Assembly: GCA_934121875.1 (NCBI GenBank)
Contig: CAKOVG010000003.1
Span: forward strand, 1 to 58,861
Direction: 5' to 3'
Length of the DNA: 58,861 nucleotides
Origin: an uncultured Clostridia bacterium
GTDB taxonomy: Bacteria; Bacillota; Clostridia; TANB77; CAG-508
Shown here: positions 12,801-52,310 of the stretch, piece by piece
How positions within the stretch are numbered: position 1 is the stretch's first letter
Layout of the letters: each line of letters begins with the position of its first letter
The notes under the pieces: model-generated
What the model saw: only the letters and a program-made list of their open reading frames with translations
Told to the model about the DNA's origin: nothing
The model's database searches: none
Position numbers and translations under genes: made by a program

Positions 12801-15800
12801 TTCCATTTGAAATTTGTGCTAATTCAATTCTTAATGTTCTATTAGCATATGTATTATCTAATCTAGCTTTTCCTACTCCATTTGTAATTGTAGCTGTTTG
12901 ATATCCAAGTGGAATATATTCTTCTCCTCTTTTTTCACTTACAATAATACTTGCTTCTCCATTTAAATCGTAATTTGAATCAATATCTTTTAAATTAACT
13001 GTAATTTCTAGTGGATTTGATAATGCTTTATTCAATAATCCTATATTAATTGTATCTGTTCCCAAACTATTATATTTTTTAATTTCACCTATAGAATACT
13101 CAGTACTACCATTTCTTTCTACATAGCTTAAATATTTAATATTATCTACTATTCCTTGTGCACTAATTCCTCCTATTGCAAATTCTTCTGTATCATTTCC
13201 TTGTGTAATTTCTGCTGATTTCATTTTGCCATTTGCATCAAATTTTGCAATAAATTTGATATCTGTTGTATCTCTTTTATAATTATATGAAGGAACATTT
13301 TGTATTACAGTTATTTCAACTGTTTTATTTTTGTAGTTTTTATATAGATATATTGAATCTGTTCCATTTGTGTCATTAATATTAGTATTTCCTCTTGAAT
13401 TAGATGTTTCATAAATTTCCTTTGATATTACTCCATCTTCAACTAACCTAGTTTCTAAGGTAATTTCACTTCCAGTAATAAATTTAAATCCATGGCTTTG
13501 TGAATCTGAATTATCTTTGAAAATTCTTTCTAATTTTTGTGCATTTTCTAGTTGATAATAATGTGTTTCCCATCTATACCAATGCCAATACCAATATGAT
13601 GACCATCGATATGAATAACTTCTTGTCCAATTTCCATAAGATTTATTAAATATTTTTACAGCAACTGTTGCATTTTTGGGTCTTTCTTCTGCTGGTTTTT
13701 CTTTATCAGTGTCATTTGGAATGTCTGGAACGTTTGGAACATCTGGTTGTTCTGTTTCAGATGCTACTTTTGTAGGTACTGTTATTGTTACTACCTTTTT
13801 AGTTACCCCATCTACTGTTTTATTTATTATTTCAACTTTCAATTCTTTTGTAGTAGTATCTTGTAAGTATACAAGATTTCCATTTTCATCTATTTTTAAT
13901 GTAACTACTTTTATTTCTTCATCTAGTCCATAACCAACTGCTGCTTTAACTTCTTTTAATAGTATAGTAGTTTTATCTTGTCTAATTGCTAAATCACTAA
14001 CTTCTATTTCATCATTAACAAGTGTATTTGCACTTATTATACTGCTTTCTGCATATGGCCTAATTTCAACATCATATCTTGAACCTGGTATTTTTTCACC
14101 TTTTGAATTTACTTTTATTATGTCTATATCATAAAGGATTCCAGATAATATATCCTCTGTTGAATTCATTATTTTTAATGAAATATTTACTTGGTTTTTC
14201 TCTGCTTCATAGCTTACTAAACGATCTGATAAAAGTTCTTTTCCTTGTAAATAACTTATTCCTTTATATGTAACTATTTCCCCTTCTTTGGTAAAACGAA
14301 CTTCTACATTTATTGTTTCTCCTAATAATTTATATGGTTCTACTGTTTGTAATTCTTCTAATTTAAATATATAGCTTTTTCCTTCTTTTGCTACAAATTC
14401 TTCTCCAATTTCAACATATCCATTTGATGAAGTAGTAATTTCTTGGCTATAACCTGTTGTTTCTTCTGTTACTCTAAATTTAAACCCTCCAAGAGATAAC
14501 TTTTTGTTTGTATCTGTTTTTGCAACTTGAAATTTAACTCTACTATTTTTATTTGAATATACATTATCTTCTACTAATACATTACCATTTTCATCTATTT
14601 TAATTTGAGATGCATTAATATTATTGGTAGAATTTACCTGGTAAATTCCTTTATTGTTTTTAGTTAATAATATTGTTTTTGTTTTATCATCTATTAAGTA
14701 TCCATTTGCTGCCTTTGTTTGTGTTATTTGTATAGTAATATTTTTGTCATTTAATAATTCTGTATTTGCTTGTCCATTATCACCTGTTGATATAATTTTG
14801 GTTATAATTGAATTAGATGTTGACATTTTTATTTTGTATTGTGCACCTATAACAGCACTTTCAGAGTCTTTATCTTTTTGTGTAATTATTAATTTAGTGT
14901 CTCCGTTTATTGGATTCATTGTACCTTTTATTTGTATATTTGATACATATTTGAACATATCTGTATCATCATCTTCTGAATAAAATACATTAATATTTTC
15001 TAATTTTGACATTTGATATGTATCTACAATTTTATTATTTTCATATTTGATAACTATTATAGGTGTAATTCCTAATACATCATTTTCTATTTCTAATCTA
15101 TATATTACTTCTCCATTTCCATCATTTTGTATATTTATTAATTCTATATTTCCATTTTCATCTGTTACACCAGTTCCTATTAAACTGTTATCCAAAATTT
15201 TATAAATTTTAACACCAATTCCTTCTAATGCAACATCAGGATTTTGTTCTGAACTTATTTTTATTTTTATAGCATTTGTGCTTGTTTTTTTAACATTTGT
15301 TAATTTAACATATACAACACCATTTTCTGCTTTTTCAAATACACCACTCATAGATGCTTTATTATATTCAATACTTCCGTCATCTTTTCTATTAATAGTT
15401 ATATAACGATCTACAGTTTCTTTAGCATATCCGTTTGCTGATTCTTCATGAATAAATGTTAATTTTAATAATCCTTTTCCATATAGATTATCAATTATAA
15501 TGTTTCCATCAGCATTTGTTTCATATGTTTTGGTTGTATATTCTAGTCCATCTTCTGTTTCTACTTTAATTTTATATTTACTATCTTTAACTGGTGATCC
15601 ATCCTTGTAATCAGTTACAGAAATTTGAGTTGTAAATTTACTTGTTTCTTTTCTTTGGTTTGCAACTATTATATTTGCTTTTGTTTGGTTTTCAATTGTA
15701 ACTGCTTTATTTTCTGCAAATAGTTTTTGCTCTACTTTAGAAACCTCTCCATTTTGATCAAATGTTATTTTTAAATATGTTTTTCCACAACTTGTGTATT

Positions 15801-34916: not shown

Positions 34917-36149
34917 CTATCCTCCAAATTTAAACAATAACTTAATTAGCCACATTATAATTGCCGCTCCTATAATTGCAATTATCCAATTGTTGTACTT
35001 GTTTGTTTTTTCAACTTCATAATCCTTATATAGCAAATCATATTTGGCTTTAATCCTCATAAATGTATCATCTAGCTCTAGTTCTTTTTTATAATATTTA
35101 TCTAGAATTACTCCTGTTATATTATTGGTAACTTCATAAATCCAGTCATTTTTGGCAAAATTAATAAATCTTGATTTTATATTTTCAAAGTTTTTTGCTT
35201 GCTTTATTTCATAATTTAATTTATTTAAATATATTTTTTGATGCAAACAATATATATAATGGTAAAGTTGTACATTCTCGTATTCAAATAAAAGTTCAGT
35301 ATAATTTTGTATATTTTTAGTGGTTGTAAGTAACACTGTTGAATTTTTAGAAAATCCATAATATACATATTTCTCTTTATATACACTGTCTGTATGATAT
35401 GTTATATCATTAATTTGCTCGTTTGCTGGCTTTACAGTACGATACTTTTCAAATTCTTTTTGTAAATTTAAAATATCAGATTCTTCATTCCAAAGTTCTT
35501 GATCTAAGCACACATATGAATATGTTATTAGCCTGTTTGTATCTAAATTAATTTTAGGTGCAATAATATTTTTTCCTGTAATTTGCATTAAAAAGTCTGA
35601 AAATTTTTGCATATTATCAAATTGCTGTGTTTGTATTTTTATTTTCTCATATTCTTTAGTATGGTGTACTTTTGATTGAATGTCTCTAAATTTGTAATTG
35701 AAATTTAAAACATCTGAAAAACTTGCTCCAGTTTGCAAAGCAGTTTTCATAATCAAAAAGCAAATTCCTGTATTAAAGCACACTATTTCAACCTTATTTA
35801 TATCAAAGAAAATCCCATCTTTTTCTCCAATTTTTCCTGGTATATCTTTTTCTATACAATACTCAAAAACTGTACAATATTTTTTGCTAAGCAATGTTGC
35901 TTTCATTTTTAAATCTAGAGTTTGATAATTTTTTAAGTATTCTTTATTCATATTTAATGGCCAAAACATTTTACTTTTTATTTCTGGTAAGAAATATGAA
36001 TCAAGTTTTATATCTCTTTCAGGTTCAAAAATTTTCAAATTGCATTTTTTGTTTTTTAATAATTTGTATATATAATTTTTGTAATGATTTTCTTCAATTA
36101 AATATGGATAAATAAAATATGTGTATTGGTATTTTGTCTTTAGCTCCAT
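34917..36149 (-). CDS. hypothetical 410-aa protein with a single C-terminal TM anchor
   Basis: It has good coding appearance and an AGAGGAAAAG RBS. It is tightly packed between the WG-repeat gene (11-nt gap) and acpS (5-nt gap). The C-terminus NNWIIAIIGAAIIMWLIKLLFKFGG is hydrophobic. I recognise no family. Confidence 0.6.
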   Translation of the reverse strand: MELKTKYQYTYFIYPYLIEENHYKNYIYKLLKNKKCNLKIFEPERDIKLDSYFLPEIKSKMFWPLNMNKEYLKNYQTLDLKMKATLLSKKYCTVFEYCIEKDIPGKIGEKDGIFFDINKVEIVCFNTGICFLIMKTALQTGASFSDVLNFNYKFRDIQSKVHHTKEYEKIKIQTQQFDNMQKFSDFLMQITGKNIIAPKINLDTNRLITYSYVCLDQELWNEESDILNLQKEFEKYRTVKPANEQINDITYHTDSVYKEKYVYYGFSKNSTVLLTTTKNIQNYTELLFEYENVQLYHYIYCLHQKIYLNKLNYEIKQAKNFENIKSRFINFAKNDWIYEVTNNITGVILDKYYKKELELDDTFMRIKAKYDLLYKDYEVEKTNKYNNWIIAIIGAAIIMWLIKLLFKFGG

Positions 36150-36160
36150 TTTCTTTTCCT

Positions 36161-37687
36161 CTATTTATCTGTATAGTAATTTAAATTTAAATCTTCTCCT
36201 ATATGCCATTTGTTAATAAATTCAATCAAAGAATTGTTTTCTAGTTGGTATGCTGGTGCAATAGCTACTTGTCCTTTTGAGTTTACACAACCCCACATTC
36301 CGTTCTTTTTAACACTAGCATATCCATATTCATTTTGTTCTCTAGCATCATCATAAATGTAGTCCACTACTACAATTCCGTTTTTATTTACAAATCCATA
36401 TTTTCCATCTTTTTTGTCTAAGAATATTGTATTTGATGTTAATACTTCTTTGTTTGTTTTTTCTTCAAATTTAAAATTATAGTATTTGTATTCATTTTCA
36501 ACTCTAACTCTCATATATCCAGCTTCAACATTTATTTCAGATAAAATTCCTGTTAGTTTTGTAAATAATGAATGATCCATGAATTCTGTATTCACTTCGT
36601 TAGCCTTTGTTCCTTCTATGAAACCAGCATCAGCTCTATAAATTAAACTTTCATATGTTGGTAAAATTAATTCTTCGCCTTGTAAATTTGTAACACCATA
36701 TTTATTATTTAATTTTACAATATATTTGTCGTCAAATAAATAACTAATTTCTTGATATTTTGTTGCAATTTTAGTATCTCCAGCTAATGTTACAACTCCA
36801 TATTTTCCATTATTCTTAATTATTACATTTTCTCCGTTTATAGAGACAACATCCTCCATTTTACCTTTTAAATATGTATTTCCTTCTGTATCTATTACTT
36901 GCCATTTTCCAGATTCTTTTACTACATATTTTCCACTTCCACCTATTGCTTTAATATCTTGATATTTAACTTCTAATGCAGTAGTTTTATCATGGTTTAT
37001 AACTCCTACTTTTTTATCTGTACTTGTTACAATATATCCATCTTCATATTTGTCTGAAATTGGTGCAATTTGACTGTATTCATTTTCAATAAGAGTTGAT
37101 CCTATATTATCTACTAAGCCATATTTTTGGTCTTTTTTTGTTAATATGCTGCTTTTTACACCTTTTAATGCTGTAATTTCATCATATTCACATTTTAATA
37201 ATTCTTTTCCTTTAAAATCAACTAGTCCATATTTTCTGTCTTTTGAAACTAATAGCACATCCTTTTCATACCATATGTTGTTTTCATTATCATAGTTTTC
37301 TAAAGCAGTAATTGTTTCATATCCTGTTACAATTTCTTCTCCTTTTGCATTTATTGCCTTAGTTTTATATGTATTTTTTGCATAATCTACATCATATGTA
37401 CATATAAATAGTTCTTTACTATTGTCCGGAATAATGATTGCCTCACTGTATTCTGGTTTTATAATGGTTTCCCCTTTTGAATTTATTACTCCCCACTTTC
37501 CACTTGTATATACTGCAAAGTAACGATTTGGTACTTTCTTTTCTTCAGCTTTGGTTTCTCCATTAAATAGCTTAGTTACTCCTATAATTGCCATTATTAT
37601 TACTGCAAATACAAATATAACTGCTATTACTTTTTTAATGTTTAGCTTTGGTTTTTGTGAATTATATCTTCTTCCTGAACTTGACAT
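36161..37687 (-). CDS. membrane-anchored WG/KWG-repeat protein
   Basis: After an N-terminal TM segment there are at least 8 repeats of the form (K/G)(K/W)(Y/W)G(V/L)(I/V)(N/D)xxGxxΦΦxxxYxxΦ. Examples are SGKWGVINSKGETIIKPEYSE, DRKYGLVDFKGKELLKCEYDEI and NGMWGCVNSKGQVAIAPAY. Confidence 0.75.
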   Translation of the reverse strand: MSSSGRRYNSQKPKLNIKKVIAVIFVFAVIIMAIIGVTKLFNGETKAEEKKVPNRYFAVYTSGKWGVINSKGETIIKPEYSEAIIIPDNSKELFICTYDVDYAKNTYKTKAINAKGEEIVTGYETITALENYDNENNIWYEKDVLLVSKDRKYGLVDFKGKELLKCEYDEITALKGVKSSILTKKDQKYGLVDNIGSTLIENEYSQIAPISDKYEDGYIVTSTDKKVGVINHDKTTALEVKYQDIKAIGGSGKYVVKESGKWQVIDTEGNTYLKGKMEDVVSINGENVIIKNNGKYGVVTLAGDTKIATKYQEISYLFDDKYIVKLNNKYGVTNLQGEELILPTYESLIYRADAGFIEGTKANEVNTEFMDHSLFTKLTGILSEINVEAGYMRVRVENEYKYYNFKFEEKTNKEVLTSNTIFLDKKDGKYGFVNKNGIVVVDYIYDDAREQNEYGYASVKKNGMWGCVNSKGQVAIAPAYQLENNSLIEFINKWHIGEDLNLNYYTDK

Positions 37688-40424: not shown

Positions 40425-40466
40425 CAAAAAGAAACTCTATAAATTTCTTTATAGAATTTCTTTTTT
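40425..40466 (-). terminator. intrinsic terminator of the two-gene surface-protein operon
   Basis: GAAACTCTATAAA (40431-40443) pairs with TTTATAGAATTTC (40448-40460) with one mismatch. A-runs and T-runs flank it, and it lies just past the stop at 40473. Confidence 0.6.
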
Positions 40467-40472
40467 GGTTAT

Positions 40473-43400
40473 TTATTTTTTAAGAACTTTTTTCTTAATG
40501 AATATTACTGCTCCTGCAAGTATTACTACTACCGCTATTCCTATGCCGTAATATAAGTAGGTATCACCAAATGGTGGTAGTATTACTACTGGCTCTGCCA
40601 TGCTTGAGTCTGACTCTTGTGGCTTTTCACTTGGTTTTTGGTTACCTTGTATTGAGAATGCCATTCTTCTACCTACAGTGTTTGTTGTTGCTACAATTTC
40701 AGCTATGTTGTTATATACCATGTCGTCCTGATCATTTTGCGCTGTAATTGTTTGAGTTAGTATTAACTGTGTTTTTGTATATGTATCCGCATTTCCTTTT
40801 ACGCTTTCTGTTGCAGGAATTAATTTTTTATTTAGTGCTTCTGTTGTAATTATTGTATTATAATTTTTTAATTCCTTTCCAACATCGTCATTTACATATT
40901 TTCCATTTGTGTATAGTTCTTGTGTTGTTACAGCTTTCCAACCCCATTCAGCTTTGTTGCTTGCTTGTCTATATTGTAAGTTATTAGCTACATAGTCTGC
41001 TATTAAATCTGCTGAAGTTCTTACTATATTAGCTGCATTTCCTATTTTTCCAGTATAATAGAATTTTGTTTCGTTATAGTCTACTTCGCCAATATTTTTT
41101 ACTGTCATAATATATGTTATTTGAATTGTTGCACCATGTGTTAGCTCTTTATCCATTGTTGCTTGAATTAACCCTTCTGGTTGTTTACTTATGTTTTGTA
41201 ATATTTTATTTCTTAAATTGTCATAAACTTTTGTTGGATTATTTTTGTCTGTTCCATATGTTGGATAATAATTATTTTTCTTTTCTGAGCTTACATCATA
41301 TGGGTTCTTTACAATCCATCCCATGTTATCTACAGTTTGGTTCGCATCAAATAATATATTTTGATTTGCTAGTACTATTTTTACATTACTTACTTTTTTG
41401 TCAAGTTCTAATTGAGCTTTTGGTCTTTCTTCTAGACCAAAGTCTACATTTTGAATATGATATTTACCATTTCTGTCGTTTCCATTTAGGTAGTTAATAT
41501 TGTTATAACCATTACTACTAATTTCGTCTTTTTCACTGTTTACTCTGTTGTATTCTCCTTCAATTGCTATTACTCCAGTATCTGCAATCATTTGTAAATT
41601 ACTGTCTTTTAATGTTTTATCATTATTCAATCGATTTGCAAGATCATATTTCATACTTCCATTAGAATAGTTATTTACAGCTTGTCTGCGTGACCAAATA
41701 TCTTTTGCATCTGAATATTGGTTTTTAGCTGCATCTGCCTTTTCAATATCATATCCATATGTTCCTGTTTCGTTTTGTTTTTCTATATCAGTATATCCAT
41801 AATATGTCGAATCATTTCCAGTATTTGTCTTTCCACTTTGATTTATTTCAGCTTGATATGTTGTTGATTTAAAGTCTTGTCCATTATAGCCTTTAGTTGT
41901 TGCTGTTACATCTCCTCCATATGTAAATCTTATAATGTAGTTACCTGGAATAAATCCTTCAAAACTATATGCACCTTCTTTGTTAGTTTCCATTGAATTT
42001 TTTTGCATAACAGCTGGTTTTTGTAGTTTTCCATCTTTTAGTACTTCTAACATTTCAACTTTTATTCCTGGAATTCGTAATTCTTTATTTTCTTTGATTC
42101 CATTTCCAATATATGCATCATTTACTTTAGTATTTCTCTTATCTTCCCAAGTTGTTCCACTTATTTTTCTTATTAAAGCGTTATCAACCCATACTCTAAT
42201 TCCTTTAGCACGGTCTGTATCATCTTCAAATGTATATTCATATGTTCCGTCTCTTAGAGTTCCTGTCACTCTAAAGTTGCCTGGTTTAGAATCATAATCA
42301 ATAATTCCTGCTACATCTCTTGAATTTTTAGTAATTCCATTTGGTAGTTTTGTTCCATTTGCATAAAATGTTGAATAACCATTAATTTCTGCAATATTGT
42401 GTTTATCATTATCAATATCAACTTTATTTGCCTTTTCATTTACTTTAAATGTCAAATACAAGTATGCATCATCTCCAGCTGCTAATTTTGTATTTGCTAA
42501 TCCATTTAAATATATTTTATCATAACCTGATAAGCTATATTTTGTTTCTTGAGCATATTCTCCGTTTAAGTTTGTTGAAGCAGTTTTAAATTTTCCACTT
42601 CCAACTTTAGTTTCTCCTGTTAGTATACTATAGTACTCACTTGGCTTAATTTTTACATCATCCCACATTGCCCATGAGTATTGTGGTGTATATGTGTAAG
42701 TATTATCATAGTAGTCTACTACTTCATCTATTCTAGTTAATATACCTTCTGATTGGTTTCTTATTCTAATTTTATATGTTATATATACCTCAAGTTTATT
42801 AACTCCACTATATTGGTAATCAGATGGATATAATGCTCTATTATATGTTGTTCCATAGTATGTTCCATTTTCTAATCTTGTTTGAATTTCCCAATAAGCA
42901 TCTTGGTCTGTTCGTTTATCATATTGGTATGTTTCTGTTTTGCCATTAATTTTTATTGTAGCTTTATATACATCTTTTTGTAATGCTAAATCTGCTTTTG
43001 GTCTTCTCCATAAACCACAGTTTACGAAAAGCTGTCCTTCATATACGTTTTTATAAGTTATATTACCCTTTGATAGTGCTAGTTCTCCAAAGTATTTTAT
43101 CTCTCTATTATCTGCTGGATCTAATGCATCACCATTTACTCCATTTTTTACTAATGTATAATTAGAATATGTAGTTACACCACTTGCATATGTTCCTTTT
43201 GAATAACTGTTATTAGGCGCTTTATTTCCTGCTACAATATATGTTGTAAAGTAATCTATAGTTGGATATTGATCAAATGCTCTTGCGTTACTTGCTGCTT
43301 GATTTTTAGTCCAAGCACTAATTTTACAATCTTCTATAAACTGAAATTTCTTCCATAATTGAGTATCTCTTCCGGCTATTTTACTATATATTTCTTGTAA

Positions 43401-45605
43401 ATCTGGATATTTTCGGTTTGTTTTTATATACTCTCTAATTGCTTTACTAATTAAACCTTCTTTAAATGTTCCATTTTCATTTATTTTTCCATTTTTCACT
43501 TCCAAATATGTATCAATAAGTTGATTATTTGCATTATATACATATTTGCCATTTGGTTGTAAAGTAATTCCTGCTAGTTCGTAAATTGTAAATACTTCAT
43601 TATATTTACCATTTAAGTATCCTAGTGAATTTTCTGATATATAGTTATGTGGTGTAGAACCTATAGAAGCAAATTTTTCATCATACTCATTTCTTTCTCC
43701 AGTTATTTCAGTTACCTTTGATGTCGAGTTCCATATATCATTAGAAGTTACAGAACTATATTGTCCATTTTTTGCTATTTGTTTAGCATTTGTTCCACTT
43801 GCTCCCTTAAAATATTCTGTTGGTGTATATGTTTGCCCATTATATGTAAATTTAACTACATAGTCTTTAGTTGGGTCTAGTCCTCTAAATTCATAATATC
43901 CTTTTTCATCTGTTAATGTTGGATTTATTCTACGAGTATAATCGGCTGGATCATTTATTTCAGCTTGAGTTGCAGATAATTTTTCTTGTTTTAATGTTGC
44001 AAGTTTTGCTAATGTTAATGTACCATTTTTTTCTACTTTATATAGTGTAACTTCTACATTTTTTAACATTTTGTCATTGTTTTTATTTAATGTTCCACTT
44101 GCTACATTGTCTTTTCCTGATAAGGCATCTTCAAATACAAATCCTCCAATTTTCATACTTGTATTAAATAAGTCTTCTCTACATGTAATTTCAAATTCTT
44201 CTTCTATATAATATCTGCGTGCATATTCTACTGTTAAACCTGGCTGTGAATCAGTTGTAAAATTTATTTTTGCTTTTCTTCCTCTACAGTCATCACATCT
44301 TCTAGTATGTCCTCCACAATTTTTCTTGCCACAAGTATAAGTGTGTGTATGTCTGTTTGTATGTCCTTTGCAATAGTCATCAACATAATATCTTCCTGCT
44401 TCTCTTTCACATATTTCCATTTCACATTTTAAATATTTAAAGTCAATATGTAATTTTACCGACCCTACTATTTCTTCTGGAAAATCAAATTCAACATAAA
44501 ACTCATCGTTTGGATGTGGATATGCTTTTTGAAAAGCTAAAAAGTCAATTAGGTTTATATTATAAACTTGTTCTTTTCTTATCCAATTGCTAAAGTATGA
44601 TGAATTTTTTCCTTCTTCTGAATCAGCAGGATACATTTTAACTATATTTGCATTAGCATAAACTTGAGATGCAGTATAATCTATAGCTTTTTTAATTATA
44701 AGATTTTTAATTTCTATTTTATTTCCTGCTGCATCTACTAAATACATATTAGTAATTCCTCCAAAAGATGCTGCTTCTACTACTGAACCACTTTCATATA
44801 CATAACCATCAACATAATCAATTTTAAAAGGTCCTAGTTTTCCAACTTTATCAACTTTATCTATGTTTAGAGCAACTTCGTCTTCACTTAGTAGAGATTT
44901 TGGTTTCATTCCAGTTTTTCCGTCTTTGACCTCTAATATTTTTTCATAGAACTTTTGATATTCTCTTGAAGCCTTTAAAACCCATCTACCTTCTTCTTCT
45001 TGATAACTTTTTCCTGATTTACTTGCAGCATATTGGTGTGGGTTTACTAATTGAGACTGCCATATTGCCTGTTGTTTTGCTGGTGCCCATACAGCTTCTG
45101 GAAGTTTACTATCTGGCTTATAGGAAATTATGAATGCAATATCATGTAAATTGCTATAATAATTTCCATCCTTTCCATAATATGTAGATGTTTCAGTAAA
45201 ATGTCGTCCTATACATCTATAATATGTATCACTATAATATTTTAAATATGTATTCACATGTGGTGCTTCTCCGCATGCAGTATATGGACTATCTGGAGTT
45301 GTATTTACTATATTTTGAATTTGTTGTTTTGTTTTTGCATAATCATTCGCCATTCTTACACGAGTTCCTGGCGATATACAATAAAGTTCTTTTTTTCCTT
45401 CTGCCTCTGGTCTCCAAAGCCTAGTTCCCATTTTTATTTCAGCATTTAATTTTACTTCACTACAAGTTCCATTAAATGTTTCATTTTTATTTAAGTTTCT
45501 TTCTTCATATTCTAATGGAATTGCAAAACTAATTCCAAATACTAATATAAACATGGCTACTACACTTAAACTAAAATATTTTAATATGCATAATATTTTA
45601 TTCAT
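40473..45605 (-). CDS. 1,710-aa surface protein: thioester-domain-like N-terminus, Cys/His cluster, SdrD-B-like and DUF11/TIGR01451-like modules, C-terminal TM anchor
   Basis: After a signal/TM N-terminus come LYCISPG (Cys76) and KQQAIW (Gln178/179). SdrD-B-like modules are present (GGFVFEDALSGKDN...TDEKGYYEFRGLDPTKDYVVKFTYNGQ; ISGTTWEDKRN...NKEGAYSFEGFIPGNYIIRFTYGG). A DUF11-like ending (IIDYDSKPGN...EDDTDRA) is also present. The C-terminus is VILPPFGDTYLYYGIGIAVVVILAGAVIFIKKKVLKK. An AAGGAGG RBS lies 18 nt after the upstream stop. Confidence 0.85.
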   Translation of the reverse strand: MNKILCILKYFSLSVVAMFILVFGISFAIPLEYEERNLNKNETFNGTCSEVKLNAEIKMGTRLWRPEAEGKKELYCISPGTRVRMANDYAKTKQQIQNIVNTTPDSPYTACGEAPHVNTYLKYYSDTYYRCIGRHFTETSTYYGKDGNYYSNLHDIAFIISYKPDSKLPEAVWAPAKQQAIWQSQLVNPHQYAASKSGKSYQEEEGRWVLKASREYQKFYEKILEVKDGKTGMKPKSLLSEDEVALNIDKVDKVGKLGPFKIDYVDGYVYESGSVVEAASFGGITNMYLVDAAGNKIEIKNLIIKKAIDYTASQVYANANIVKMYPADSEEGKNSSYFSNWIRKEQVYNINLIDFLAFQKAYPHPNDEFYVEFDFPEEIVGSVKLHIDFKYLKCEMEICEREAGRYYVDDYCKGHTNRHTHTYTCGKKNCGGHTRRCDDCRGRKAKINFTTDSQPGLTVEYARRYYIEEEFEITCREDLFNTSMKIGGFVFEDALSGKDNVASGTLNKNNDKMLKNVEVTLYKVEKNGTLTLAKLATLKQEKLSATQAEINDPADYTRRINPTLTDEKGYYEFRGLDPTKDYVVKFTYNGQTYTPTEYFKGASGTNAKQIAKNGQYSSVTSNDIWNSTSKVTEITGERNEYDEKFASIGSTPHNYISENSLGYLNGKYNEVFTIYELAGITLQPNGKYVYNANNQLIDTYLEVKNGKINENGTFKEGLISKAIREYIKTNRKYPDLQEIYSKIAGRDTQLWKKFQFIEDCKISAWTKNQAASNARAFDQYPTIDYFTTYIVAGNKAPNNSYSKGTYASGVTTYSNYTLVKNGVNGDALDPADNREIKYFGELALSKGNITYKNVYEGQLFVNCGLWRRPKADLALQKDVYKATIKINGKTETYQYDKRTDQDAYWEIQTRLENGTYYGTTYNRALYPSDYQYSGVNKLEVYITYKIRIRNQSEGILTRIDEVVDYYDNTYTYTPQYSWAMWDDVKIKPSEYYSILTGETKVGSGKFKTASTNLNGEYAQETKYSLSGYDKIYLNGLANTKLAAGDDAYLYLTFKVNEKANKVDIDNDKHNIAEINGYSTFYANGTKLPNGITKNSRDVAGIIDYDSKPGNFRVTGTLRDGTYEYTFEDDTDRAKGIRVWVDNALIRKISGTTWEDKRNTKVNDAYIGNGIKENKELRIPGIKVEMLEVLKDGKLQKPAVMQKNSMETNKEGAYSFEGFIPGNYIIRFTYGGDVTATTKGYNGQDFKSTTYQAEINQSGKTNTGNDSTYYGYTDIEKQNETGTYGYDIEKADAAKNQYSDAKDIWSRRQAVNNYSNGSMKYDLANRLNNDKTLKDSNLQMIADTGVIAIEGEYNRVNSEKDEISSNGYNNINYLNGNDRNGKYHIQNVDFGLEERPKAQLELDKKVSNVKIVLANQNILFDANQTVDNMGWIVKNPYDVSSEKKNNYYPTYGTDKNNPTKVYDNLRNKILQNISKQPEGLIQATMDKELTHGATIQITYIMTVKNIGEVDYNETKFYYTGKIGNAANIVRTSADLIADYVANNLQYRQASNKAEWGWKAVTTQELYTNGKYVNDDVGKELKNYNTIITTEALNKKLIPATESVKGNADTYTKTQLILTQTITAQNDQDDMVYNNIAEIVATTNTVGRRMAFSIQGNQKPSEKPQESDSSMAEPVVILPPFGDTYLYYGIGIAVVVILAGAVIFIKKKVLKK

Positions 45606-45623
45606 TTATATTTCCTCCTTTCT

Positions 45624-48600
45624 TTAAGATTTTAAAACTCTTTTTTTGATTTCATAAGTACCTATTACTAATATTGCAATAACTGCTAATGTAATTCCTA
45701 TATTTAGTACTATTCTACCAGTTGCTACTGTTAATATTATATCTGCCTTTGACATATCGTCTTCTTGGCTAAGCATATTTCCTGGTGTTGAATCTATATC
45801 TGCTAATCCAAGTTTGTTATAGCTTTCGTAAATTTCTGCATTGTTGTTTATTATTGTTCCTATGTTTTTGTCTGTAATGCTATAACTTAATACTAATGTA
45901 AGTTCTTTGCTTTCTCCTGGTTTGATTTCTGTTTCTGCTAAACTTGCATTAAATACTGTGTTGTTTTTATCAGACTTATACCAGTTTTTATTTATTTCTG
46001 TATTGAATTTAGCGTCTGTTGGTATATAATCTACTACTTTTTTAGCATATCCTGCTACTTGTCCTTCATTTGTAATTACTATTTTGTATTCTACAACTAT
46101 ACTGCTTTTATTTATGTTTTGTTTTAATACTTCAACTTTTTCTAATTTAGATTTATTGTATTCTGTCACTCTTGTTCCAATTGTAGGAGTTGTTAATGTA
46201 ATTTTACTAATATATTTATCTAATTTTAGGTCAAATTTTTCGGCCTCATATAATCCTATATCAATATCTCTAACATTTCCATTTGAAACTGTTATTGTAT
46301 CTGAAACACCTGCTTTAGTATTTTTTCCATCTAGTATTACAGTCATATCTATTGCATCTGAATTGTAACTTTCTCCTACATTATCTTTTTGATATTCTGT
46401 AATGTTATATTTTCCTGCATCATATAGAAATACTACCAAGTATTGATCTGGTTTTATATTTGAAAATTCGTATTCACCATTATCATTTGTTGTTGTTATT
46501 TTATTTTCTCCAGATTTTATATCTTTTACTATTGCACTATTATTTTTGTATATTAACATTACTTTTACATTTGCAAGCAGTTTTTCTGACTCTTCTCTTT
46601 CACCATTTTTATTAATATCTATCCATGCTTTTCCTGTAATTTTATATGTATTTTCATATGATGGATTATCTGGATTATTTGGATTTTCTGGTAAATCTGT
46701 TCCTCCTGGTCTTAAATGATATTCTGGTACATATTCTATATAGTTTGTTACATTTTCTAAATTAGTTAGTTGTGTTTGAGTAGATTTTAATGTTGCAATG
46801 TTTACTATTTGTTTACCACTTTTTTCATTGTCTTCTAATTTTCCTATTACATTTAATGTAATATCCACTGTACTATTTCCTGGTAATGCACTTATTTTTA
46901 CATATACTTTTCCTTCTGTATCTTTATTTACTATACTTACAGCATTACTATAATCTAATCCATTTGTACTTGTAACTTTTGCTTCACCACCAATATACAT
47001 TACATTTGATGGTAAACTGTCTTCAAGCACTATGTCATTTTGTGTTCCACCTGTAGTAGTTAATTTAAATTTATATTTAAATGTTTCTTGTTCTTTTACA
47101 TATATTTTTTCTGGTTTTAATTGTTCTCCATTAATTAATGATTTTTGAACATTTATAAATCTTTCATTTGAATAGTGTTTTTCAACATCATCTGCTTCTA
47201 CATAAATTTTAGTAGAATATCTTTGATCAACACTATCTTTTAGTATAAACTCAAAGTTTAAATAACTTTCTTCCTGATTACTTATTTTAGGTAGTTCAAT
47301 AATAGCTTCGTTTGCTGTTCTTGTTACCTTGGCTTCTATTTTTGCATCTCTTTCCCAATAAGCATTTTTTATTTCAGCCCCTGTTGGTAATGGAATGTGA
47401 ACCTTTAAATTTGTCATTTCATTTTTTGGTTTAATATATATTCCATATCTAATATTAATTCCACTTGAGTAAATTACTTTTTCAAATGTATTTGTTGCAT
47501 TTGTTAATCTTTCAAATTCAGATTTGTCTATTACAAAATTTAATTTATTTGAATTAGCTGTAGCTTGTGTATTATCTGCCATTACTTCTATTTTTATTTC
47601 TTTTTCATCCCAACTATTATTTTTAGTGGTTTCTACTTTTAATTCAAACTCAATATTTTTTGTTTCTCCTGGTTCAATATTTCCTACTTCTATAATGTTT
47701 GTTGTTTCTTCATAACTTCCTAATGCTTCATCATATAAAACAACTTTAGTTTCTGTTGGTAAATTTATTTTAGCTTTAACATTTTTTGCTACTATTGTAT
47801 TGGTATTTTTTATTGTTGCAAAAAATCTTGATGTTAAATAATTACTTATATAATAAGTTTCCTTATCTTCAACTATTCCTTCACTATTTTCTACTTCAGT
47901 TGTTTTTCTATCCATATTTGTAGTTAAGTTTACTGTTAGTTGTGCACTTTCTCCTGTTAATAATTTAATAAGTCCTGCTGTTTTTGTAGTTCCAATTGTT
48001 GCTGTTGCAGTTTTATTATCAAAATATACTTTATAGCCTAAGTAACCATTGTTATTATAATCCAAGTTTGCTGGTATTTCTGCATTATAGCTAAATGAAA
48101 CTTGTGCTCCTTGTTCTAGTTCTCCTGCTATAGCAATTAAATAACTTTTTACTTGTGATAAATCTGTTGGATTTTCTAACCAATTATTTTCTGTATTTAT
48201 TAGGTCTTTGGTTGCATCTGCTTTTGTACTATAATAAATTTTATAATTTTTATTTGCTGTTACATTAATTTTACTTTTCATTATCATATCAAATGTGTTG
48301 CCAAAACTTTCTGTTGAGTCAAATTGTTTGCTTTGCGTAGATGGTATTCTTCCTAATATAAATACATTTTCTATAATGTTTTGATAATTATTTGTTATAA
48401 TTCCTTTTATTGTTGTCTCTTTTTTTTCTGTTGCAACTGGAATTCTCACTTCCTTAGTTGTTGTTTCTGAATTAGAAACTGTTGTTGTTGTAGTTGTAAA
48501 ATTGCTTATTTCATTTACAGTTGTTACTTCTTCTGGAACAACTATATCAACACCTATTGTTGTTAATCCTTTTAACATTTTATTGTTTGCTCTTAATTTT

Positions 48601-50699
48601 CTTGCTTTATTATCTGTTTGTTCAAATAATGTTGAATTTTGATTTGTGTAGTACATATTTATTGTTTCATTTTTCGTTTTTAGTACTTTATCTAATTCAA
48701 TTTCTGTGTTGATTATTATATTTGCTCCTTTGGCAATAACATTTTTTTGTTCTATATTTTCAGCTGAGAAATATTTTGTTTGTTCTCCTTCTAGTTCTAT
48801 TACAATAACCTGTTTATCATTTTTATTTTTTACTGAATAACTTTTTATTTTTAATTCTTCTTCTAGTAAAAGATTAATATCTTTTATTGTTGCCTTTTTG
48901 ATTTGTGTAGGTAATTCAATTTCTATCGTAGGATTTTTGTATAATGCACTTGTTGCATTTAATGTATTTAATACTGCTCTTATTTCAACTACATTATTTT
49001 TTGTAGCAGTACTTAAGGTTGTTTTATTTATTAATAATTCTGCTGATGATACTGGTTCTTTAAAATTTACATCTATTGATTTTGTTTCTGATGTATTTTC
49101 AGCTGTCATTTTTGCTTGTATTGATAATTTAGTAAAGTTTTGAAATTGATTTTTACTATAATCAATTTTTCCTTTTATTGCCTTTTCAACATCAATTTCG
49201 ATAGTTCCTTCTAAAATTGGTTTACTTGTTATTAATGTTATTTGGTTTGTATTTGTTTTGCTAATATCTAATACATAGTTTTCGTCTGTTACTTGTGTAT
49301 CTTTATTAATTGTGCCTATTTTTTCATTGTTAATGTTGTTATATATTTCAACGTTTCCATCTTCTCCAAGTATTTTTTGGAACATTTTTTGATTTATTTT
49401 TATTGTTTTGTTGTATGCATAATTATTTCCTGCAACTGTTGTTGCACTTTTACTGTTATTTGTACTTATAAATTTGTCAATTTCTTGTACAAATGTTAAT
49501 TTTTCTGTTAGTTCGGCATTATTTACTTGTGCCTTATAACGAACTGCATATGCAGTTTCTTTTTGCTCTTTTGCCACATTGTTTGCATATATTTGACCTT
49601 TATTTATGTATTGTACTGATAATATTGTAAAGTCTGTAATTGTTCCTTTTGTTTCATCTGCTTTTATTTCTACAGTTTTGCTTTGTGTTAGGTTATTTTC
49701 TGTTCCATATACATTTATTTTTGTGTCCACTTTAGCTGTTGTATTTATATTGTTTGCTTTTACATAATCATATATTTCTTTACTTTCAAAATTTAGGTTA
49801 ACTAAATATTCATCTTGTACATTTTTTAGCCATGATATTTGCTCTTGATTATTTGATACTGTAACTTTTATTTTTCCTGTTGTATTATCATATTGATAAT
49901 TTTGAGAATTAAAGTTCAAGCCATTTGATTCTCCGTTAGTTGCTTTTGTTTGGCTAGCAATTACATTTACATTACTTGGTTTTACTCCATTTATTTCTGG
50001 CACTTGAATATTAATTTCTGTACTTTTAACTGGTAATTTGCTATCTTCTATTCCAGTTTTTATTTTAGTTTGTAATATAACACCATATTTTTCATTTACT
50101 TTGTATGGTACATATTTAGTAAACTCTGTTTCCAAAGTGCTTTCAGCAGTTCCTTCCCATGTAAGTTTATTTGTAATTTGTTTTGCTATTTGTTTTTGTT
50201 TACCATTTGCATCGATATATTTTGCACTAAAGTTTGTAATTGTTTCCTTTGCAAAATTATCTATTGCTACTTGTTCAGAAGCTAACATACTTACTGGTAC
50301 TTCAATAGTTATGTCTGAACCATTATTAATTTTATTTAAAATTATTTTATTTTCTTTTAAATTTATGCTTTGAATGTATTCATTTTGAATTTTATCGCTT
50401 ATTTCAAAGTTAACATTTTCAAAACTGATAACTGCATTTTCTAGGTATCCTGCATTTTTGACTTTTATATTTAAAAGTAATTTGGCAGTGTTGCTAATGT
50501 TTTCAGTTTTGCTATGTAATTCTCCTTCAAAATATGAGTTAAATTCTACATTGGCATTTTGCGTTTTTGAGTTTTGGGATATAATTTCATTTTCTGATAA
50601 TGCCTGTACTACTCCATAAAATCCAATTGTAGATAAGTTTGCACTCACTAAGCATATAAGTAATAGTGTTGCTACTAATTTTTTTAATAATTTGTTCAT
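45624..50699 (-). CDS. 1,691-aa surface protein: long beta-rich N-terminal region, SdrD-B-like and DUF11-like modules, C-terminal TM anchor
   Basis: The signal peptide is MNKLLKKLVATLLLICLVSANLS. There is an SdrD-B-like module (ITGKAWIDINKNGEREE...TNDNGEYEFSNIKPDQYLVVFLYDAG). A DUF11-like module follows (VVEYKIVITNEGQVAGYAKKVVDYIP...NNNAEIYESYNKLGLADIDSTPGN...EDDMSKA). The C-terminus is DIILTVATGRIVLNIGITLAVIAILVIGTYEIKKRVLKS. Confidence 0.85.
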   Translation of the reverse strand: MNKLLKKLVATLLLICLVSANLSTIGFYGVVQALSENEIISQNSKTQNANVEFNSYFEGELHSKTENISNTAKLLLNIKVKNAGYLENAVISFENVNFEISDKIQNEYIQSINLKENKIILNKINNGSDITIEVPVSMLASEQVAIDNFAKETITNFSAKYIDANGKQKQIAKQITNKLTWEGTAESTLETEFTKYVPYKVNEKYGVILQTKIKTGIEDSKLPVKSTEINIQVPEINGVKPSNVNVIASQTKATNGESNGLNFNSQNYQYDNTTGKIKVTVSNNQEQISWLKNVQDEYLVNLNFESKEIYDYVKANNINTTAKVDTKINVYGTENNLTQSKTVEIKADETKGTITDFTILSVQYINKGQIYANNVAKEQKETAYAVRYKAQVNNAELTEKLTFVQEIDKFISTNNSKSATTVAGNNYAYNKTIKINQKMFQKILGEDGNVEIYNNINNEKIGTINKDTQVTDENYVLDISKTNTNQITLITSKPILEGTIEIDVEKAIKGKIDYSKNQFQNFTKLSIQAKMTAENTSETKSIDVNFKEPVSSAELLINKTTLSTATKNNVVEIRAVLNTLNATSALYKNPTIEIELPTQIKKATIKDINLLLEEELKIKSYSVKNKNDKQVIVIELEGEQTKYFSAENIEQKNVIAKGANIIINTEIELDKVLKTKNETINMYYTNQNSTLFEQTDNKARKLRANNKMLKGLTTIGVDIVVPEEVTTVNEISNFTTTTTTVSNSETTTKEVRIPVATEKKETTIKGIITNNYQNIIENVFILGRIPSTQSKQFDSTESFGNTFDMIMKSKINVTANKNYKIYYSTKADATKDLINTENNWLENPTDLSQVKSYLIAIAGELEQGAQVSFSYNAEIPANLDYNNNGYLGYKVYFDNKTATATIGTTKTAGLIKLLTGESAQLTVNLTTNMDRKTTEVENSEGIVEDKETYYISNYLTSRFFATIKNTNTIVAKNVKAKINLPTETKVVLYDEALGSYEETTNIIEVGNIEPGETKNIEFELKVETTKNNSWDEKEIKIEVMADNTQATANSNKLNFVIDKSEFERLTNATNTFEKVIYSSGINIRYGIYIKPKNEMTNLKVHIPLPTGAEIKNAYWERDAKIEAKVTRTANEAIIELPKISNQEESYLNFEFILKDSVDQRYSTKIYVEADDVEKHYSNERFINVQKSLINGEQLKPEKIYVKEQETFKYKFKLTTTGGTQNDIVLEDSLPSNVMYIGGEAKVTSTNGLDYSNAVSIVNKDTEGKVYVKISALPGNSTVDITLNVIGKLEDNEKSGKQIVNIATLKSTQTQLTNLENVTNYIEYVPEYHLRPGGTDLPENPNNPDNPSYENTYKITGKAWIDINKNGEREESEKLLANVKVMLIYKNNSAIVKDIKSGENKITTTNDNGEYEFSNIKPDQYLVVFLYDAGKYNITEYQKDNVGESYNSDAIDMTVILDGKNTKAGVSDTITVSNGNVRDIDIGLYEAEKFDLKLDKYISKITLTTPTIGTRVTEYNKSKLEKVEVLKQNINKSSIVVEYKIVITNEGQVAGYAKKVVDYIPTDAKFNTEINKNWYKSDKNNTVFNASLAETEIKPGESKELTLVLSYSITDKNIGTIINNNAEIYESYNKLGLADIDSTPGNMLSQEDDMSKADIILTVATGRIVLNIGITLAVIAILVIGTYEIKKRVLKS

Positions 50700-50735
50700 A
50701 GCTTCCTCCTTAATTTTTATGTTACCTCACATTTT

Positions 50736-50764
50736 ATTATACGACATTTTGACGTATTTTTCAA
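50736..50764 (-). promoter_or_regulatory. sigma-A promoter of the surface-protein operon (TTGAAA-17 nt-TATAAT)
   Basis: On the minus strand, TTGAAA (50759-50764) is followed by a 17-nt spacer and TATAAT (50736-50741). GCTAAAAACA precedes it. It lies about 37 nt upstream of the start at 50699. Confidence 0.6.
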
Positions 50765-51021
50765 TGTTTTTAGCGTTTTTATTTATTTTTTTTACTTTTT
50801 CCACCTATATTTATAATTATATACTTATATTTTATCATTTTTATGCCATTTTTCAACAATAATTTTCTTTCTATCATAGTATATATTGCTTTTTATCTTA
50901 CGGGTATTCTTAGATTATTAAAAATATTAAATTTGTATTACATTAAATTTATTCACACTTTTTTAGTTTGTCACATATAATATTATAGTTTTAAATACAT
51001 ATATTTTATTGAGGTGATTAA

Positions 51022-51190: not shown

Positions 51191-51580
51191 ATGAGTGAAG
51201 ATATGTCAGATATTTTTAAAAAAATAAATGAAATGATTAAAAATGATGAAATTCCAGATTCTATAAAAAATATGATGAATGGTTTGAATTCTAATAATAA
51301 TGGCATGTCTTCAACTGATTCTTCTAGGGAACAAAGTGGTTCAGAAAATTCTTCTGACATTCCTAACTTTGACATGGCTACCATGTTAAAGATGAAGTCT
51401 ATAATTGATAATATTAACAAAAGTCAAAATGACCCTCGTGCTAATTTATTAAAATCTTTAAAACCATATTTAAAACCTAGTAGAAAAGATAAAGTAGATC
51501 AGTATATAAAACTTTTTAGTATGGGTAAAGCTTTTGAAGTGTTAAACCCTTTAGGTGGTGAAAAGAAAAATGATGTATAG
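51191..51580 (+). CDS. hypothetical 129-aa protein (S/N-rich centre, conserved-looking C-terminal helix region DPRANLLKSLKPYLKPSRKDKVDQYIKLF)
   Basis: It has a good RBS (TAGGAGG) and plausible coding composition. It is translationally coupled to its neighbours. I could not assign a family by eye. Confidence 0.6.
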   Translation: MSEDMSDIFKKINEMIKNDEIPDSIKNMMNGLNSNNNGMSSTDSSREQSGSENSSDIPNFDMATMLKMKSIIDNINKSQNDPRANLLKSLKPYLKPSRKDKVDQYIKLFSMGKAFEVLNPLGGEKKNDV

Positions 51581-51941
51581 TTATCCATTTTCTAGTTTTC
51601 CATATTTCAGAAGATACTCTTCCGGCTCTTCTATTTATTATAATAGACCAACCTTTCAGGCTACTCAAAAAAAATCCTCTAATTATGTTTCTAAACATAA
51701 ATTAGAGGAAAATCCAGTTACTGATAATGAACGTTCTTCTAGGACATATTCCGGTTTTAGTTTTTTAAATAACTTTTTTAATCAAAATGATAGAGACAAT
51801 AATGAAAGTTATTTTGATTTATTTGGTTTAAAGCTATACAATGATGATTTATTGCTTATTGGGCTTATTTTCTTTTTATACAAAGAAGATGTAAAGGACC
51901 AATACTTGTTTATTGCACTTATATTATTGTTATTAAGTTAG
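51570..51941 (+). CDS. hypothetical ~123-aa Y/S/F/N-rich protein with a hydrophobic C-terminus
   Basis: The ATG at 51570 has an AGGTGGTG RBS and overlaps the previous stop by 11 nt. The product is MMYSYPFSSFPYFRRYSS...DDLLLIGLIFFLYKEDVKDQYLFIALILLLLS. Its 3' end overlaps the convergent minC stop by 9 nt. Confidence 0.5.
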   Translation: MMYSYPFSSFPYFRRYSSGSSIYYNRPTFQATQKKSSNYVSKHKLEENPVTDNERSSRTYSGFSFLNNFFNQNDRDNNESYFDLFGLKLYNDDLLLIGLIFFLYKEDVKDQYLFIALILLLLS

Positions 51942-52310
51942 TATTAATTCATTTTCGTCCACATATGCGTATGTTTTTATTACTTTTTCGTCTTCTTTTT
52001 CAATTTCTTTTACAATATCCGCAATACGAATTTGTAAAGATTCAATAGAGGCTGCAGCTATTATAGCCTCTTTGTTTCCTTTTGCTCCAGCATGTGCTAC
52101 ACCTCTTAATATGCCTAGTATTACTATGTTGTCTTCTGCTAATACTTCTGCGCCTGCATTTACATCTCCTATTATTACCAAACTTCCTTCAAATTCTAGC
52201 TTTTGTCCTGATCGAAGTGAACCTTTATAAAACTTTGTTTTCGATGTTGCAATTTCCTTTTTAAAGCTTTGCTTAATTCCATGTAAACCTAATTCGTTTA
52301 ATTCTTCCAT
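51933..52310 (-). CDS. minC: short MinC (C-terminal beta-helix domain only, 125 aa)
   Basis: LRSGQKLEFEGSLVIIGDVNAGAEVLAEDNIVILGILRGVAHAGAKGNKEAIIAA is the MinC C-terminal (MinD-binding/dimerisation) domain signature. Only about 30 residues precede it, and the PBP2 stop lies 18 nt upstream, so no longer version is possible. Confidence 0.75.
   Translation of the reverse strand: MEELNELGLHGIKQSFKKEIATSKTKFYKGSLRSGQKLEFEGSLVIIGDVNAGAEVLAEDNIVILGILRGVAHAGAKGNKEAIIAAASIESLQIRIADIVKEIEKEDEKVIKTYAYVDENELILT

Follow-up and report, generated by a model that had tools for sequence, protein, structure and literature searches.

The window analyzed here, 58,861 nucleotides (nt) of contig CAKOVG010000003.1 (assembly GCA_934121875.1) from an uncultured Clostridia bacterium, carries a two-gene operon for very large proteins, which we call A (1,691 amino acids (aa), 45624..50699) and B (1,710 aa, 40473..45605). 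Both genes lie on the minus strand, as do all features described below unless indicated otherwise, and both were defined as open reading frames (ORFs) with their translations; frames of such length cannot arise by chance in DNA of ~27% GC. In protein A, a signal peptide precedes ~12 beta-sandwich domains, after which come one SdrD_B and one CnaA/CLIPPER-like domain, and the C-terminus is of the sorting type. Protein B likewise has a signal peptide and a sorting-type C-terminus, between which lie a variable head rich in Cys and two SdrD_B + CnaA-like modules. The pair is kin to known fibrillar or thioester-type adhesins and to pilus-like pairs. The results obtained with the window and with related loci lead us to the view that A and B probably represent a coupled, strain-variable pair of fibrillar adhesins, which would form giant surface fibres on vegetative cells of low-GC, spore-forming, uncultured gut Clostridia.

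The coupling of the two genes, initially proposed from the window alone, held when genomes were compared for co-occurrence and adjacency. A scan of a genome collection with a single protein gave four loci, and the comparative set comprised 84 fetched loci, originating from the human gut (most contigs are so labelled) and from buffalo rumen. Across these 84 loci, an A-like ORF was directly followed by a B-like ORF in 73 cases, the gaps between them being mostly 14–21 nt, with some overlaps. In seven other cases of A with downstream sequence, a large ORF for a secreted protein was found right after A, and this ORF was truncated at the end of the contig, interrupted by a frameshift or so divergent that no match was obtained; no lone A was observed where downstream sequence exists. 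Tandem arrays of two or three pairs are present in many loci, and in every case it is the whole pair that was duplicated.

One may still suppose that A and B are independent membrane-anchored adhesins that became neighbours via tandem duplication alone, without any physical or functional partnership. Adhesin genes are clustered in many Gram-positive genomes, A and B have just the anchor module in common, and the loci with one to three pairs occasionally bear an extra paralogue. This explanation appears unlikely in view of the strict A-then-B order with gaps of ~14–21 nt or overlaps in 73 pairs over a very deep divergence, of the duplication that always takes the whole pair, and of the fact that A, wherever downstream sequence is at hand, is never left without a neighbour of this kind. 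Since the pairing is obligate, a physical cooperation between A and B is suggested, be it in a heteromer, such as the heterodimeric stalk plus tip put forward in the initial annotation, or through the attachment of B to A.

The signals for expression agree with this organization. The promoter-like site P1 (TTGAAA, 17-nt spacer, TATAAT; 50736..50764) was the top-scoring site of the region in a consensus scan, matching 11 of the 12 consensus positions. The match by itself proves little, because promoter-like sites were no more frequent than in shuffled sequence (71 found vs. 79 expected). True support for P1 comes from its conservation: P1, a second promoter-like site P2 located upstream (TTGAAA, 16-nt spacer, TAAAAT, with the TG of an extended −10; 50829..50856) and the AAGGAGG ribosome-binding site (RBS) of gene A (50705..50711) are invariant in an alignment with six relatives whose A proteins are just ~44–64% identical. 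The 18-nt gap between A and B holds the RBS of gene B, again AAGGAGG (45614..45620). Downstream of gene B, folding revealed an intrinsic-terminator-like hairpin (40426..40465) with an AU-rich 18-bp stem followed by UUGUUUGU; its energy is −18.1 kcal/mol (z = −6.4 vs. shuffled sequence), and its tail is U-rich. A consensus terminator scanner missed this hairpin because its stem is AT-rich, with few G-C pairs. The unit of promoter, two genes and terminator, described as self-contained in the initial annotation, is real.

The pair also occupies a fixed place in the chromosome. In nearly all loci long enough to be informative, mreB-mreC-mreD-pbp2-minC lie upstream of the pair, while spoIIE and a gene for a WG-repeat protein lie downstream. 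The pair had previously been considered as inserted between spoIIE and the mre/min cluster, and this notion should be abandoned, as the pair has stood between minC and spoIIE since the ancestor of the lineage. A mobile insertion was ruled out, given that the GC content is flat across the region and the same synteny is found where PBP2 is just ~50–60% identical. The adjacency to spoIIE, kept in nearly all loci, could point to a sporulation role, with A and B serving as spore-surface appendages or forespore envelope proteins. We regard such a role as very improbable because the pair is served by tandem sigma-70-like promoters, which are conserved, and by a terminator of its own; moreover, the architecture is that of vegetative fibrillar adhesins, and in one distant locus (L057, 3540..14842) the pair adjoins the dcw cluster (mraZ, rsmH) instead of spoIIE.

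In striking disparity with the conserved surroundings, the two proteins themselves are hypervariable. In the relatives whose MreB, MreC, PBP2 and SpoIIE are 87–93% identical to those of the window, the identity of A is only 45% and that of B 38%, no better than in relatives with PBP2 just ~60% identical. At least six types of A, 44–66% mutually identical, exist among loci with flanking proteins averaging 78–90% identity to the window. In two loci evidently belonging to one species (L012 and L021), the flanks are 96–100% identical and the orthologous A copies only 81%, and a further pair has been inserted in one of the two loci. Variation is greatest in the middle of A (~residues 600–1350) and in the head half of B (residues 1–860); conservation is better in the promoter, at the two ends of A and in the base of B. 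Such rapid change in comparison with the neighbours is the pattern of an exposed, selected surface structure. The slpA locus of C. difficile is a strain-variable surface-layer cassette, and cassettes of this type resemble the A/B locus in that highly divergent alleles of surface proteins reside at a fixed site between conserved housekeeping genes. Unlike them, A and B have no SLH or CWB2 wall-binding domains, are fibre-type rather than lattice-type proteins, and vary also by the gain and loss of whole gene pairs.

Both proteins begin with what we judged by eye to be signal peptides, a basic n-region followed by a hydrophobic stretch. The AlphaFold2 (AF2) model of A residues 35–1234, built from 89 sequences, is all-beta, has a mean predicted local distance difference test score (pLDDT) of 88 and comprises ~11 beta-sandwich domains. 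Protein A is thus a stalk of about 13–14 differing beta-sandwich domains when the SdrD_B and the last CnaA/CLIPPER-like domain are counted, and in an extended form it may reach roughly 50 nm. A homologue search in which the 8,000 best candidates were scored gave 538 hits for A among sequences clustered at 90% identity, with E no higher than 0.001; every one of the top 120 listed was full-length, and the lengths fell within a narrow range of ~1,640–1,750 aa over more than 100 homologues. Structural matches of the A model in Foldseek were strings of Ig-like domains, namely PrgB, integrin legs, macroglobulin-domain proteins and an archaeal S-layer, with E down to 1e-19 but with template-modelling (TM) scores of just 0.1–0.17, which argues for a generic stalk architecture and for no specific family. 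Whole-protein phmmer searches with A and B against PDB gave nothing, NCBIfam had no match in A or B, and weak transthyretin-like Pfam matches were also seen in the pair.

The matches to macroglobulin-domain proteins raise the alternative that A is a bacterial alpha-2-macroglobulin-like protease trap. The fixed length of ~1,650–1,700 aa, conserved over more than 100 homologues, would suit such a trap, as would a weak Pfam bMG10 match in A (E 0.009) and Foldseek matches that include E. coli alpha-2-macroglobulin, human A2M, complement C3/C5 and CD109. However, the bMG10 match is below its cut-off, the TM-scores to A2M and ECAM are just 0.08–0.15, as for any string of beta-sandwiches, and A bears SdrD_B and an adhesin-type anchor module. 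Most decisively, the single Cys of A is in its signal peptide, so that mature A has no Cys and a CxEQ thioester is impossible. On these grounds, we ruled this reading out as improbable in the extreme.

What A and B share is the C-terminal module. In BLAST, their similarity was limited to the last ~90 residues, while hhalign extended the homology to the entire C-terminal modules, that of A measuring 350 aa (probability 99.9%, E 1.6e-33), with the TVATG of A aligned with the LPPFG of B. Judged from this profile alignment, the two modules are paralogous. The SdrD_B domain of A (residues 1357–1464, WIDINKNG ... GEYEF; 46308..46631) was recognized by Pfam with E 2.3e-9; the scores for SdrD_B (PF17210) are 37.9 bits in A and 33.9 bits in B, both above the curated cut-off of 29.7, and a profile built from the C-terminal module of A found solved SdrD structures with E 4.5e-19. 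The initial reading of SdrD-B-like modules in both proteins is thereby confirmed. As in SdrD and other staphylococcal Sdr/MSCRAMM proteins, these domains carry the WxDxNxNG...GxYxF pattern; unlike the Sdr proteins, A and B have one or two B-type domains without tandem repeats, and have no N2-N3 ligand-binding region, no Ser-Asp repeat and no LPXTG.

B has two consecutive modules. Module 1 (residues 484–1135, 42201..44156), whose layout is supported by the alignment consensus of the family, comprises an SdrD_B/transthyretin-like and a CnaA-like domain separated by an insert, and the CnaA-like domain ends with DYDSKPGN...EDD (1103–1129). Module 2 (residues 1145–1675, 40581..42173), delineated by hhalign to A and by the Pfam SdrD_B match at 1167–1245, comprises an SdrD_B domain with large inserts and a CnaA-like domain. 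The corresponding last domain of A (~residues 1485–1650, 45750..46247) was delimited in an alignment of 15 diverse A C-termini and ends with DIDSTPGN...EDD (1634–1648). The motif DxDSxPGN...EDD thus occurs once per protein, just before the anchor in A and in the middle of the protein in B. K1521, D1557 and N1619 are invariant in the 15 C-termini, and they are candidates for an isopeptide triad, as their spacing resembles that in the CLIPPER structure (Costa et al. 2025).

The modules ending with this motif had at first been described as DUF11-like, a label for which the evidence is weaker. The motif is present in both proteins, but the sole DUF11/CLIPPER (PF01345) match of A is elsewhere (residues 957–1027) and has 23.3 bits, below the cut-off of 24.6; B has no PF01345 match in Pfam, and no Pfam family matches the last domain of the window A. 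Most homologues of A carry precomputed PF01345 matches. In this respect, and in the Lys/Asp/Asn spacing, A is similar to the CLIPPER (DUF11) fibrillar adhesins (Costa et al. 2025, PDB 9IFR), while the extra DxDSxPGN...EDD hairpin of its last domain distinguishes A from them, and the A C-terminal module gave no sequence match to 9IFR.

The module terminates in what looks like a sorting signal. Protein A ends with TVATG, a 21-residue hydrophobic helix and EIKKRVLKS (45627..45731), and protein B with LPPFG, a hydrophobic helix and KKKVLKK (40476..40580), as read from the sequence and from the family alignments. Both therefore have the three-part layout of a sortase signal, i.e., a pentapeptide, a hydrophobic helix of ~21 residues and a basic KK(R/K)VL tail. 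A regular-expression search detected neither LPXTG nor a YPKN-type pilin motif in A or B, and no ORF of at least 120 aa in the window matched Sortase, just as the initial annotation stated. Its further claim that the proteins have no sorting signal and are hence membrane-anchored is not safe: TVATG and LPPFG occupy the position of LPXTG, and relatives have LPPTG or TPxTG there, some of them passing the LPXTG-anchor model TIGR01167 (17.9 and 16.4 bits in distant relatives vs. the cut-off of 15.9). The T-G pair of A, retained in TVATG without L or P, occurs without exception in 15 diverse A proteins and shows a conservation of at least 90% across 89; other pentapeptides of the A family are SIVTG, SVKTG and GVQTG. 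In the B family (n = 77), LPPFG occurs 46 times, TPPTG six, MPPFG and TPATG five times each and LPPTG once, and the remainder includes TPNTG, TPSTG and SPNTG. By their layout and their variants among relatives, the anchors of A and B descend from sortase sorting signals.

The strict conservation of LPPFG argues that something reads this motif. To our knowledge, every characterised sortase cleaves after threonine, and a Phe before the cleavage site would be unprecedented; we found no mention of LPPFG in such a context in the literature. For the A family, a parallel can be drawn with CbpA of C. difficile, likewise a clostridial surface protein with x-V-x-T-G (NVQTG) instead of LPXTG, and this NVQTG was not cleaved by SrtB in vitro (PMC4155245). 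Unlike A and B, CbpA is a single collagen-binding protein, unpaired and unrelated in sequence.

These anchors bear on the most conventional rival of our interpretation, an ordinary sortase-assembled pilus in which B is the tip adhesin, A the shaft or base pilin, and a class C sortase encoded elsewhere carries out the polymerisation and the attachment to the wall. Sortase-assembled pili with a tip adhesin include those of S. pyogenes (Cpa/Spy0128), SpaCBA and the RrgA-type pili, and their tip pilins are known to have thioester and VWA heads. The A/B pair shares with them the adjacency of genes for an adhesive and a structural subunit, the CnaA/CnaB-type domains and the three-part C-termini, and the head types of the B family (thioester-like here, VWA in P0286) resemble those of tip pilins. 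The invariant T-G of A lies at the sortase cleavage position. The pair of the distant locus L057, in which the A-like protein has SVETG and the B-like one LPPTG, has a sortase gene 222 nt downstream; the product of this gene (249 aa, Pfam Sortase E 2.7e-26) has its best NCBIfam match in class C. Finally, a cohesin protein encoded in the window ends with a canonical LPQTG, a transmembrane helix and a basic tail, and the source genome very probably has a sortase for this reason. Nevertheless, we consider an ordinary pilus quite unlikely. There is no YPKN-type pilin motif, A with its 1,691 aa and fixed length is several times the size of a shaft pilin (A and B are 3–5 times larger than the pilus subunits), LPPFG places Phe instead of threonine before the cleavage site, no sortase is found within ~10 kb of the pair in more than 70 loci of the main clade, and the L057 sortase attains only 64 bits vs. 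the class C cut-off of 160.

Of the two proteins, B would be the adhesive one. Its base, the C-terminal ~850 aa, is conserved and common to at least 120 proteins with differing heads, including SpaA, Cna_B and VWA. The head present in the window (residues 35–480, 44166..45503), characterized by family search, alignment and AF2, is rare: an exhaustive HMMER search of 1.84 billion cluster representatives yielded just 27 hits, each of them a large protein or a fragment. B contains 13 Cys residues, and two motifs of its head are invariant in close relatives: Y-C76-I-S-P-G (45366..45383) and K-Q178-Q-A-I-W (45060..45077), the latter predicted to be helical (AF2 helix at residues 174–183). C76 is kept in 95% of 41 diverse B-type heads with a mean identity of 15%, and Q, A and W of the second motif are invariant in 12 heads, with Lys replacing the Thr of the TQ motif.

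Known thioester domains have three motifs: [YFL]C-hydrophobic-hydrophilic, a central helical TQxx(hydrophobic)W, and a weak strand motif with the bond-forming Gln (PMC4450167). The B head bears the first two (YC76IS and KQQAIW), in the right order and ~100 residues apart. As for the third one (hydrophobic-Q-hydrophilic-hydrophobic-hydrophobic strand), the lone other conserved Gln is Q454, which is 75–100% conserved, lies 378 residues past Cys76 and matches the motif poorly. A thioester between Cys76 and Gln178, which was implicit in the initial annotation, was ruled out, since known thioester domains do not form the bond with the Gln of the helical TQxA(I/V)W motif (PMC4450167). Pfam TED (PF08341) did not match the window head and was found in 0 of 41 heads in one scan and in one of 12 heads (E 0.013) in the other; NCBIfam TQXA did not match the B head, and phmmer and profile searches of PDB with this head gave no significant thioester-domain match. 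The AF2 model of the head is poor (mean pLDDT 58), because the alignment held just nine sequences, and its top Foldseek match, the thioester domain 6fwy (E 0.027, TM 0.1–0.17; not significant), is just a hint owing to the quality of the model. Taken together, these data leave the chances for and against a thioester-type head on B roughly even.

The thioester-domain adhesins (TIE proteins, SfbI, Cpa, and TIE86 of E. faecium, PDB 6fwy) can be compared with B. Like B, they carry an N-terminal head on an isopeptide-type Ig-like stalk, and the B head resembles theirs in the two motifs and in the Foldseek match. Unlike theirs, it escapes the Pfam and NCBIfam models, the motif with the bond-forming Gln is not located, its size of ~450 aa far exceeds that of theirs, a hairpin rich in Cys and His is part of it, and the C-terminus has LPPFG rather than LPXTG. 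The Cys/His-rich region (residues 394–440, 44286..44426; CEMEIC...CKGHTNRHTHTYTCGKKNCGGHTRRCDDC) is predicted to form long beta-hairpins, and its C399 and H419 are invariant in close relatives; this part of the head may bind a metal or be rich in disulfides.

Two observations in relatives concern the cysteines of such heads. The distant B-type proteins of L066 (5880..9794), L070 (5880..9794) and L079 (9156..13070) have one Cys in the whole mature protein, located in an FCLEHG motif near the N-terminus, as would be expected of a lone reactive Cys. In L001 (8999..9637), L002 (1784..2422) and L009 (4133..4681), A is immediately preceded by a gene for a thioredoxin-like protein (AhpC-TSA/Redoxin). 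This gene, which the window lacks, may be linked to the many cysteines of the B-type heads.

The picture that we consider probable is the following. A and B would be exported via their Sec-type signal peptides, and the tight spacing of the genes would provide for their stoichiometric co-production. A would act as a stalk of fixed length, with conserved ends and a variable middle, and B as its adhesive partner, in which an exchangeable N-terminal head, here Cys-bearing and possibly of the thioester type, is mounted on the ~850-aa base. Retention at the surface would be ensured by the paralogous modules, in each of which SdrD_B and a CnaA/CLIPPER-like domain are followed by the pentapeptide, a transmembrane helix and the KK(R/K)VL tail; the modules derive from a sortase signal, which in this clade has diverged to TVATG in A and LPPFG in B, and the anchoring may be performed by a sortase of unusual specificity or consist in plain retention by the helix. 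Duplication, loss and exchange act on whole pairs, which evolve far faster than their neighbours, at a pace to be expected of an exposed adhesin or antigen on which the host or phages exert pressure.

Several points weigh against this picture. Adhesion and the cooperation between A and B are argued solely from architecture and linkage, and the surface location and the mode of anchoring are inferred too. Thioester assignment of the B head fails in tests with hidden Markov models (HMMs). TIGR01167 gives no match to the C-termini of A and B from the window, LPPFG of B has no threonine, and sortase genes are missing from the vicinity of the main-clade pairs. Part of the hypervariability may stem from differential retention of paralogous pairs rather than from the divergence of single orthologues. 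Lastly, the sources provide for this family either no name, 'hypothetical protein' or 'SdrD B-like domain-containing protein'.

A bolder version of the same idea can be formulated, which we rate as distinctly doubtful. In it, LPPFG in B and [S/G][I/V]xTG in A, together with KK(R/K)VL, would define a new sorting branch, and a dedicated transpeptidase would join B onto A. The product would be a two-subunit fibre of ~3,400 aa, holding an exchangeable, possibly thioester-type head ~100 nm from the cell, and host immunity and phages would be directed mainly at this strain-variable fibre in an abundant lineage of uncultured gut Clostridia.

The neighbourhood of the pair deserves a brief description. 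After spoIIE, the window encodes the WG-repeat protein (36161..37687 (−), 508 aa) and an unannotated protein of 410 aa (34917..36149 (−)); the order of these two genes is kept in the distant L008 and L009, so the conserved block reaches beyond the pair. On the other side, MinC of the window (51933..52310 (−)) has 125 aa and corresponds to the C-terminal domain alone, vs. ~205–210 aa in more distant relatives, and no minD or minE follows this minC. Between minC and A, there are two small, divergently transcribed ORFs (51191..51580 (+) and 51555..51941 (+)) of 129 and 128 aa without a Pfam match, both of which are kept by relatives at 58–84% identity. In the metagenome contigs L017 and L064 (6091..8179 in each), PBP2 upstream of the pair is encoded in two separate ORFs (393 and 309 aa), which reflects either a frameshift or an assembly error.

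The window also bears the genes of what looks like a second, distinct surface-display system. A 4,965-aa protein (3829..18726 (−)) has SpaA-type repeats (Pfam E 1.9e-54) and a type I dockerin at its end, and the next gene downstream (2955..3728 (−)) encodes the 257-aa cohesin protein with the LPQTG signal mentioned above. It looks as if the cohesin is anchored by a sortase and provides the docking site for a giant fibre with a dockerin tag.

The A/B family is large and yet essentially unannotated. This work adds an obligate pair at a fixed chromosomal site, with exchangeable heads on one partner and with sharp differences between strains despite flanks that are 96–100% identical. The LPPFG and xVxTG motifs lend themselves to testing how much drift a sortase-type signal can undergo, and if the head of B is a true thioester domain, covalent adhesion chemistry would extend to a new sequence family beyond the reach of the current HMMs. 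The pair is probably the dominant variable surface structure of these uncultured commensals, and is therefore a candidate determinant of the niche choice of strains, of their recognition by the immune system and of their susceptibility to phages.

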